A stretch of DNA of 32,000 bases from Candidatus Heimdallarchaeota archaeon (GTDB taxonomy: Archaea; Asgardarchaeota; Heimdallarchaeia; Heimdallarchaeales; Kariarchaeaceae), in the NCBI GenBank assembly GCA_030149205.1, contig JASBSB010000007.1, positions 510,001 through 542,000 on the forward strand. Direction: 5' to 3'. The notes under the pieces were generated by a model. That model did not search any database and was not told where the DNA came from. It saw nothing but the letters and a program-made list of their open reading frames with translations. Position 1 is the stretch's first letter; each line of letters begins with the position of its first letter. Positions 9,451-10,941 of the stretch are shown here, piece by piece. A program made the position numbers and the translations under genes.

Positions 9451-10941
9451 CTAATCCAATATAAGGGTTTTACCCATGAGTTGAAGGGTCTTGCCGGAGT
9501 CTAATTCTTTTATCCAATTCAAATAGGATCGATTTGATTTGAGATCAGTACTAACATCAACTTTTTTTTGTGCTCGATACAATATATAGACCAACTGTGA
9601 ACCAAATCCTGCGGCAAAATGTAATCCGAACTTAATAGGGGTTGTCTCTCCCCTTGAATAATGCATTTTTGGATATTCTGGCTCTTTGAGGTTGACTACA
9701 GGCGGAATTCGACCGGTTTCCAATGATTTAACCAATGCCACATCTTCGATACCAACACCCATAGGATGACCAGTAAACCCTTTCGTATTAGTAATGATGA
9801 TTTGATTACTTAATTGACCAAAATTCTTCTCTAATGCCTCAATCTCAGCTTTTACTGCATTTCCCTGTGGGGGTGTATATGTTTCATGTGAGTAATAAAC
9901 GCAGGAAGATGCAATATCTTGTCTTCGAATTCCATGTTCCACTTCTACTTGGGTTAAAAATCGATTTAATGAATCAGAAATGTGATCTTTGTCCATTTTT
10001 GTTGCATGATATGCAGAATTGACAAAATGACCTGCCACAACCTCCACACGAGGGAACAACCCTCGATCTCTAACACTTTCTAAAGACTCCAAAACCAGAC
10101 CAACTGCCCCCATTCCTAAAATCATTCCCTTTCTGTTCTTATCAAACGGCTTTGCACCTGTTTTTACTTCATCTGTTGTGCTAGCAGCTCCAGCAGCAAG
10201 AAATCCGGAACCAACCCATTGAAACATTTCATCATTTGAAGCATCATCAGCTGCAATTATTACAACTCTTCTGCATCTTCCAATTCTTATCCAGTCTTGA
10301 GCGATTGCAATTGCCTGGGCTGTAGATGCACATGCGACATTTACATGAGAGTTAGGTCCCCGTGCTTTCACAATCTGAGCAAAATGTCCATGTGTTAATG
10401 GCATAGCCTTCAGAATAAATTTCCTATCAAACTCGTATCCTTTTTCTGTGAAAAACCTTCTTTGCTCCTTTAAAACACTGTCCAAAACCGGAAAGGTTGA
10501 GGCGAAAATAACTCCAGTATCGTCTTGCAGTGACTTTGGTAATGCAATATTGTTCTCTTCTCTCATAAGGGGAATTCCTGCATCTTTCAAAGCTTCCAAA
10601 CCCGCAGCAATTGCTAAACTTGAGGTTATATCAAACCCAGGAATCAATTGCTTTCCAACCTCATATTCTTGAAATAGGTTAAATTCTCCTTTTTTAGCCG
10701 AAAGTCTTATGACTTCGTCTTCTTTCGAAATCTGCTTGAATGAAATTTCTTCACCATCACGTGATTTTTGTACCAGATTCTTGTTTAATTGTTCTTTAAC
10801 TCCCTTTTCTGAAACATTTGTTATTAGATTTTGACCAGATAAAATAAGTTCAATGTTGTTTTTAGAAAAAACTTCATTGTTTCGACCCGGGAGTCCAACC
10901 CCAACACCAGTTACAAATGTTTTGGGGGCGTTTCTGAGCAT
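9451..10941 (-). CDS. Stand-alone beta-ketoacyl synthase (FabF/type-I-PKS-like KS domain)
   Basis: NVACAS catalytic Cys (codon 10330-10332), SHETYTP and NTKGFTGHPMG histidines, PFDKNRKGMILGMGA, FAAGFGSQ; in-frame TAG just upstream of the ATG. Confidence 0.88.
   Translation of the reverse strand: MLRNAPKTFVTGVGVGLPGRNNEVFSKNNIELILSGQNLITNVSEKGVKEQLNKNLVQKSRDGEEISFKQISKEDEVIRLSAKKGEFNLFQEYEVGKQLIPGFDITSSLAIAAGLEALKDAGIPLMREENNIALPKSLQDDTGVIFASTFPVLDSVLKEQRRFFTEKGYEFDRKFILKAMPLTHGHFAQIVKARGPNSHVNVACASTAQAIAIAQDWIRIGRCRRVVIIAADDASNDEMFQWVGSGFLAAGAASTTDEVKTGAKPFDKNRKGMILGMGAVGLVLESLESVRDRGLFPRVEVVAGHFVNSAYHATKMDKDHISDSLNRFLTQVEVEHGIRRQDIASSCVYYSHETYTPPQGNAVKAEIEALEKNFGQLSNQIIITNTKGFTGHPMGVGIEDVALVKSLETGRIPPVVNLKEPEYPKMHYSRGETTPIKFGLHFAAGFGSQLVYILYRAQKKVDVSTDLKSNRSYLNWIKELDSGKTLQLMGKTLILD

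Follow-up and report, generated by a model that had tools for sequence, protein, structure and literature searches.

The stretch of DNA analyzed here, referred to as the window, comprises 32,000 nucleotides from a Candidatus Heimdallarchaeota archaeon of the family Kariarchaeaceae (contig JASBSB010000007.1, positions 510,001 to 542,000). On its minus strand it carries a gene for a free-standing ketosynthase (KS), here called the window KS, which is of the type of the second ketosynthase domain (KS2) of certain megasynthases. The gene, its catalytic codons and its signals are located in the window as follows.

9451..10941, minus strand: free-standing ketosynthase gene (P0001; open reading frame (ORF) with translation, 496 amino acids (aa)), KS2-type, with a fold like that of FabF, a beta-ketoacyl-acyl carrier protein synthase (KAS) of type II
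10330..10332, minus strand: codon of the active-site Cys204 (ACAS, within VNVACAS); the column is invariant among 137 aligned family members
9886..9888, minus strand: codon of the catalytic His352 (SHETYTP); this His and the next Glu are invariant in the 137 sequences
9766..9783, minus strand: codons of Lys387 to His392 (KGFTGH), i.e., the conserved Lys and the second catalytic His, both invariant in the 137 sequences
9454..9570, minus strand: C-terminal tail, residues 458-496 (...WIKEL...GKTLILD), corresponding by homology to the megasynthase linker behind KS2
10951..10953, minus strand: in-frame TAG, four codons upstream of the ATG, as read from the sequence (open frame of 499 codons)
10964..10971, minus strand: TATA-like box TTTAAAAG, at -30 to -23 from the ATG (a sequence match only)

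The conserved Lys and the second His belong to the motif TNTKGFTGHPMG (KGFTGHPMG), with the Lys387 codon at 9781-9783 and the His392 codon at 9766-9768, and KGFTGH aligns with STKSMTGH of FabF. The first His stands in a HET signature in place of HGT, while DWIRIGRCRRV and AAGFGSQ are likewise present in the translation. All catalytic motifs quoted in the initial annotation of this DNA, as well as its TATA box and its upstream in-frame stop, were confirmed in the window sequence. Since the TAG precedes the ATG in frame, the window KS does not form the end of a longer frame, and it contains neither frameshifts nor stops. It was rightly described as something other than a broken megasynthase, being an intact Cys-His-His enzyme with its own start and stop. 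The position of the TATA-like box would imply a leaderless or short-leader mRNA; taken alone it is weak evidence, because the genome has a GC content of 36%. A foreign origin of the gene was rejected as far as composition is concerned, as its GC content, its GC content at third codon positions (GC3) and its codon usage match those of the surrounding region.

Two Pfam models recognize the protein, PF00109 with 57.6 bits and PF02801 with 22.6 bits, both against a cut-off of 20.8. Cys204, His352, Lys387 and His392 align with the catalytic residues of FabF, which places the window KS among the KAS I/II enzymes. Of the curated FabF, FabB and KasA models, all of which were far missed, the FabF equivalog TIGR03150 scored best (137.2 bits against a cut-off of 493.75), and judged by its sequence the window KS is not a FabF orthologue. 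An assignment to KAS III/FabH was rejected too: PF08545 gave 23.0 bits, below its cut-off of 24, the match was confined to residues 200-236, and the triad is Cys-His-His.

We found no solved structure within the KS2 family; the nearest PDB entry by sequence is FabF (1e-24). An AF2 model of the window KS, built from a 54-sequence alignment, reached a mean predicted local distance difference test (pLDDT) of 93 and a predicted template modelling (TM) score (pTM) of 0.94. The best 50 PDB matches in a Foldseek search with this model were all of KAS-II type (bacterial FabF and human mitochondrial KAS), the leading ones with target-normalised TM scores of 0.85-0.91 and E values of 1e-29 to 1e-33. The C-terminal tail is modelled as a helix and a hairpin, with pLDDT means over ten residues of 70 (461-470) and 92-96 (471-496). 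Like the best solved matches, the FabF/KAS II enzymes (PDB 4b7v, 1kas, 4ls5), the window KS is a free-standing protein of the thiolase fold with Cys-His-His and Lys. However, it is just 21-23% identical to FabF, misses the equivalog cut-off, has HET for HGT and Ala for Phe400, and is extended by about 50 N-terminal residues and by the folded C-terminal tail of 40 residues.

Sequence relatives are far closer in the KS2 family, where the window KS is 40-60% identical to more than 130 members and has 40 invariant columns in common with them. In our alignment of 137 members, 21 rows were classed as free-standing by domain coverage. None of the 137 rows, the 21 free-standing ones included, departs from the catalytic Cys, His, Lys and His, from the Glu next to the first His or from Glu366. 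The Ala and the Phe of AAGFGS are nearly invariant: among the rows covering these positions, the exceptions are one Ser and one Asn. The gatekeeper Phe400 of FabF (NSFGFGG) aligns with Ala444, and Ala occupies this column in 134 of the 135 rows with a residue. A database search with the window KS returned hundreds of large proteins at 40-47% identity. Their sources are Roseiflexus and other Chloroflexi, Acidobacteria, Myxococcota and Actinobacteria, together with Heimdall-, Thor- and Loki-type and Kariarchaeaceae metagenome-assembled genomes (MAGs) of Asgard archaea.

The initial annotation had likened the enzyme to one KS domain of bacterial type-I megasynthases resembling fatty acid synthases (FAS) or polyketide synthases (PKS). 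This can be made more specific: it is the second KS of Type R to which the resemblance extends. The Type R secondary-lipid synthase consists of a pfaA homologue with the order KS, malonyl acyltransferase (MAT), chain-length factor (CLF), three to six acyl carrier proteins (ACP) and ketoreductase (KR), plus a phosphopantetheinyl transferase (PPTase); it was described from Koribacter, Solibacter, Elusimicrobium and Roseiflexus (Shulse and Allen, 2011; PMC3098273). To Asgard and bacterial KS2 domains, those of Roseiflexus included, the window KS is 40-47% identical, and it has RGPN..N.ACAS, SHETYTP, TNTKGFTGHPMG, AAGFGSQ and the W-L...GKTL tail in common with them. We conclude that it belongs to the KS2 sequence family and is a condensing enzyme whose Cys-His-His site is intact. 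In contrast to the Type R KS2, which sits between MAT and the tandem ACPs, it is a separate protein of 496 aa with no linkage to AT or ACPs, it carries Asn361 for the Gly of the family, and it counts among the members that have diverged most. The name CLF for the KS2 position is a misnomer, because this is a full Cys-His-His ketosynthase type. True chain-length factors (KS-beta of type II PKS; PfaC) are likewise a second KS-fold unit beside a primary KS. However, they have lost the catalytic Cys, usually to Gln, whereas Cys, His and His are retained in the window KS and throughout its 137 relatives.

That the gene stands alone, with no ACP, acyltransferase (AT) or KR nearby, is correct within the 32-kb window. 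Pfam scans of its 25 other gene-like ORFs (at least 100 aa; three overlapping ORFs on the opposite strand were set aside) detected no phosphopantetheine-binding (PP-binding), acyltransferase, KR or dehydratase (DH) domain. The claim that the enzyme lacks partners did not survive a Pfam search across all 12 contigs of the assembly (3.3 Mb, 93.5% complete). ACP, PPTase, AT and KR, for which the initial annotation had proposed to search the genome, were all found in one frame of 3281 aa on contig C7. This contig holds KS, AT, four ACPs, KR, DH, PPTase and a FabI-like enoyl reductase (ER).

L014:9708-19553 (contig C7 of the source genome), minus strand: megasynthase P0121, 3281 aa, defined by its Pfam domain content
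L014:8924-9760 and L015:1286-4347, same strand: flanking genes, comprising the FabI-like ER, a biotin carboxyl carrier protein (BCCP), a biotin carboxylase, a KAS-III-like gene and a 408-aa ORF

P0121 has the architecture KS1-AT-KS2-ACPx4-KR-DH-PPTase, with a canonical type-I KS1, a PKS-type DH and a C-terminal 4'-phosphopantetheinyl transferase, and the gene of the FabI-like ER overlaps the stop of the megasynthase gene. The flanking biotin carboxylase and BCCP are components of acetyl-CoA carboxylase. All four matches to PF00550 (PP-binding) in the genome lie inside P0121, and the Pfam search of the assembly revealed no discrete ACP gene. The C7 locus is a full ACP-dependent operon which matches the uncharacterised Type R secondary-lipid synthase. 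The window KS aligns end to end with KS2 of P0121 (about residues 1050-1600) at 43% identity, without the two insertions of 10 and 41 aa found in that KS2; to KS1 its similarity is weak, with 27% identity over part of the length. The tails correspond as well: that of the window KS aligns with YGKWLKSIG...VGKTLRVKE of P0121, and other free-standing copies end likewise.

Some details of the megasynthases were observed along the way. The four PP-binding repeats of P0121 (DLGIDTVKQAEL motif) read GIDT, with Thr at the phosphopantetheine site, where carriers normally read GIDS; the aligned repeats of the Kariarchaeaceae homologue P0150 read GIDS. In P0125, P0128 and P0169 from Asgard MAGs, PF03060 (nitronate monooxygenase/FabK-PfaD-like enoyl reductase) resides in one polypeptide with KS1-AT-KS2; in place of this domain, the source genome uses the separate FabI-like gene. 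A PKS-like cluster with KS domains like those of polyunsaturated fatty acid (PUFA) synthases, uncharacterised, was reported from a Heimdall MAG in 2020 (PMC7472256). Our literature search found no paper on free-standing KS2-type genes, in Asgard archaea or elsewhere, and none characterising Type R after 2011.

On balance, we lean slightly toward the window KS being a trans-acting accessory ketosynthase that would work on the ACPs of the C7 megasynthase. The use of these ACPs is suggested by the KS2 family, which otherwise sits directly before the tandem ACPs in megasynthases, by the solved structural relatives (FabF), which are ACP-dependent, and by the four megasynthase ACPs being the sole detectable carriers in the genome, with their own PPTase included. 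The window KS is an old and diverged paralogue of the KS2 of its own genome and most likely a working, decarboxylating enzyme. By homology, the reaction would proceed as in FabF: the acyl chain would pass from a thioester carrier to Cys204, His352 and His392 together with Lys387 would promote decarboxylation of a malonyl thioester, and the carbanion would attack the acyl-enzyme to give a beta-ketoacyl product extended by two carbons. The enzyme would thereby act in trans and bring the condensing enzymes to four, the others being the KAS-III-like enzyme, KS1 and KS2; it would probably do so with a shifted preference for chain length or intermediate. Both the use of the megasynthase ACPs and any resulting change of the product are what we infer. 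Of the two routes named in the initial annotation, trans-acting or coenzyme A (CoA)-dependent, the former is favoured; the latter is not needed, because the genome holds a complete ACP-dependent operon with a 43%-identical KS2 paralogue.

How widespread are such discrete enzymes? Among 400 Asgard species-representative genomes, 60 contain the KS2 type, nearly always within a frame of 2000-3800 codons. An additional free frame of about 500-560 codons occurs in six of the 400 (G000, G008, G012, G013, G022, and G032), all from the order of the window. Five of these six genomes possess the megasynthase, and the sixth is 85% complete. The nearest relatives of the window KS, all of them metagenomic, are P0002 (60% identity), P0003 (48%) and P0004 (46%; from a Kariarchaeaceae MAG), and a free-standing homologue from Heimdall LC_2 is listed in GenBank under a generic FabF name. 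Two bacterial or archaeal split forms, considered as precedent for a discrete KS2, were rejected: P0081 is a fragment of a frameshift-ridden long-read assembly, and P0122 starts at a contig end. The neighbourhoods of the free-standing genes are unrelated and differ by lineage, featuring helicases, CTP synthase, tetratricopeptide repeat (TPR) proteins and a beta-lactamase-like gene.

At two of these loci a neighbour was noted in its own right. The genes of P0003 and P0004, the two closest of the longer relatives of the free KS, are each followed by a protein of 710-732 aa with Big_7 and Exo_endo_phos domains (L052:6629-8761 and L054:5133-7331); as the two loci are mutually syntenic, this neighbour counts once. 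The Exo_endo_phos superfamily includes sphingomyelinases and phospholipases C. In the source genome a homologue of this protein with 35-39% identity lies elsewhere, on contig C4. The free KS of G022, a member of a second clade, is accompanied by a divergently oriented short-chain dehydrogenase of 285 aa (L047:6233-7090, minus strand; adh_short 137 bits, a weak match to KR), which was not seen at the other free-standing KS loci.

In a maximum-likelihood tree, the window KS and P0002-P0004 form a clade with 100/100 support on a long stem. This clade falls into a group of 44 rows (support 96/92) that also holds Asgard embedded KS2 clades, the second free-standing clade and a bacterial clade, all joined in a polytomy. 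A third set of free-standing proteins, that of Heimdall LC_2 included, branches nearer to the root, which is itself poorly placed owing to a very long KS1 outgroup branch. A sister relation of the window clade to the KS2 clade of its own family was not rejected in the approximately unbiased (AU) test (p 0.59). A recent duplication of the KS2 of the same genome was rejected, since the two are only 43% identical and the window KS belongs to a separate, fully supported clade.

Several observations bear on whether the gene is maintained. Its catalytic and signature residues are intact across the four-member clade, the members of which are 46-60% identical. In a second metagenome (X2), obtained from a hydrothermal vent in an independent study, contigs are 96-100% identical over the gene and the spacer to the neighbouring Kbl-like gene, which rules out an assembly chimera. 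Over 1136 nt, X2 and the window KS differ by 19 synonymous and 10 non-synonymous codon changes, i.e., a rough dN/dS of about 0.2, with the reservation that the X2 contigs are of low depth, so that part of these differences may be errors. For the genes that flank its closest free-standing relatives, identity to the homologues in the source genome is 40-50%, as compared to 46-60% for the KS itself, which is thus conserved no less than the genes around it. The window KS is not a relic.

The remainder of the window is ordinary Asgard chromosome and encodes RadA, a Ras-family GTPase, a UbiA prenyltransferase, ABC transporters, TldD/PmbA, a Kbl-type enzyme dependent on pyridoxal phosphate (PLP) and the start of an AMP-binding enzyme. 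The gene next to the KS is the following.

11264-12436, minus strand: Kbl/BioF-family PLP-dependent acyltransferase (alpha-oxoamine synthase type), the immediate upstream neighbour of the KS, same strand

On the other side, an operon with the downstream ABC transporter (6587-9195) found no support: a 255-bp AT-rich gap separates the two, and the transporter is not conserved at other KS loci; its homologues in relatives are just 30-38% identical and located elsewhere. In the spacer 3' of the KS stop, at 9405-9412, one X2 contig has 42 other letters for 6 bases, which is strain-level indel variation. The AMP-binding enzyme (acyl-CoA or acyl-ACP synthetase-like) is represented by its N-terminal 236 aa (window 1-708, minus strand) and runs out at the window start; some 9 kb separate it from the KS, and no connection between the two is apparent.

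A number of findings weigh against a trans-acting role with the megasynthase. About 78% of the order has a megasynthase anyway, so that lineage confounds its co-occurrence with the free-standing gene. In three congeners (82-89% complete) the survey detected the embedded KS2 alone, and most megasynthase-bearing genomes among the 400 likewise yielded no free copy, which marks the gene as dispensable. The window KS is not genetically linked to the megasynthase, the two lying on separate contigs, and beside no free-standing copy is a lipid gene conserved. At the protein level, of 125 columns that are highly conserved in the family, 11-16 are altered in the members of the window clade, compared to a family median of 2; the changes are mostly conservative, plus Gly361 to Asn, and could mean either a shifted specificity or changed function, or a somewhat relaxed constraint. 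Furthermore, the Ala at the gatekeeper position across the KS2 family would leave the gating of malonyl unexplained, and with Thr for the usual Ser in the megasynthase ACPs, their loading can only be presumed. Regarding conservation among relatives, the lack of which the initial annotation had associated with a relic, the picture is mixed: the gene was indeed not found in the three congeners or in most of the order, but it is kept with its catalytic residues intact in the four-member clade and in a second environmental strain.

The patchy occurrence (6 of 400 Asgard genomes, none of the three congeners), the missing conserved gene context and deviations at conserved columns above those of almost all other members would also be expected of a redundant duplicate in the course of being lost, that is, a copied KS2 segment which is still intact and has no distinct role. 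We nevertheless consider this unlikely, since catalytic and signature residues are kept across a clade of 46-60% identity, synonymous changes exceed non-synonymous ones by 19:10 between two environmental strains, and a frame free of frameshifts and stops encodes a predicted fold of high confidence that is at least as conserved as its neighbours. A different reading would have the window KS condense acyl-CoA with malonyl-CoA, in a CoA-based decarboxylative elongation apart from the megasynthase. Its gene is unlinked to any ACP gene, its gatekeeper Phe is replaced by Ala, and the known fatty-acid synthesis of archaea is CoA-based and ACP-independent, carried out by a complex of ketothiolase, DUF35 protein, reductase and dehydratase (preprint 10.1101/2024.07.05.601840). 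The condensing enzyme of that complex is likewise a member of the thiolase superfamily tied to archaeal fatty-acid synthesis. However, that system is non-decarboxylating and CoA-based, uses a DUF35 scaffold (10.1101/2024.07.05.601840) and does not draw on the KS2 family, whereas the window KS is of the decarboxylating Cys-His-His type from an ACP-dependent family. As the KS2 family otherwise directly precedes tandem ACPs within megasynthases, the fold and the closest solved relatives are those of ACP-dependent FabF enzymes, and the genome encodes ACP domains and a PPTase, we judge such a carrier-independent reaction decidedly unlikely. If true, a carrier-free KS would give some Heimdall-group Asgard archaea a malonyl-driven, decarboxylative and ACP-independent elongation, distinct both from the bacterial and eukaryotic ACP systems and from the archaeal thiolase/DUF35 pathway; we regard this outcome as very improbable.

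One might also speculate that the window KS has a structural or regulatory function and pairs with a KS of the megasynthase like a chain-length factor, tuning chain length through the dimer and not by catalysis. Proteins of the KS fold generally act as dimers, the free copy is devoid of the 10-aa and 41-aa insertions of KS2, and the KS2 position was labelled CLF by Shulse and Allen (PMC3098273). Since true CLFs lack the active-site Cys, while Cys, His and His are invariant here, in keeping with catalysis, we consider this explanation very improbable. The upstream Kbl/BioF-type alpha-oxoamine synthase, finally, could form a biosynthetic pair with the KS, for instance toward an amino-lipid or a sphingoid-like product, given that the two genes are adjacent on the same strand with a spacer of 322 bp and that alpha-oxoamine synthases are generally known to join amino acids with acyl thioesters. 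However, the neighbour passes the cut-off of the glycine C-acetyltransferase model (512.8 against 460) and that of the subfamily TIGR01825 (562 against 535.4). In addition, orthologues with 72-78% identity (76-78% in the three congeners) are present in all five relatives tested, without an adjoining KS or a KS remnant, and no such neighbour occurs at the other free-standing KS loci. A partnership was therefore rejected, and we regard it as extremely improbable.

We return to the reading of the window KS as an accessory enzyme of the megasynthase and to what it means for these archaea. The usual view is that archaea have neither ACP nor ACP synthase nor FAS I/II (preprint 10.1101/2024.07.05.601840), and a capacity for fatty-acyl synthesis in the archaeal relatives of eukaryotes bears on the problem of the 'lipid divide'. 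The initial annotation suggested that the gene could indicate fatty-acid or polyketide synthesis in Asgard archaea. A case for such synthesis does exist, by way of the C7 operon; it does not rest on the window KS. While the ACP-dependent megasynthase operon on C7 is the main evidence for acyl synthesis in this genome, the window KS adds a smaller point: a few Heimdall-group genomes hold the KS2 module also as a discrete, conserved enzyme. What is new is the link between the C7 operon and the unlinked, free-standing KS gene. With 496 aa and a size typical of soluble proteins, the window KS is a convenient handle for KS2-type function in place of a protein of 3281 aa, and it brings questions of substrate chain length, carrier dependence and the recognition of Thr-type ACPs within reach.

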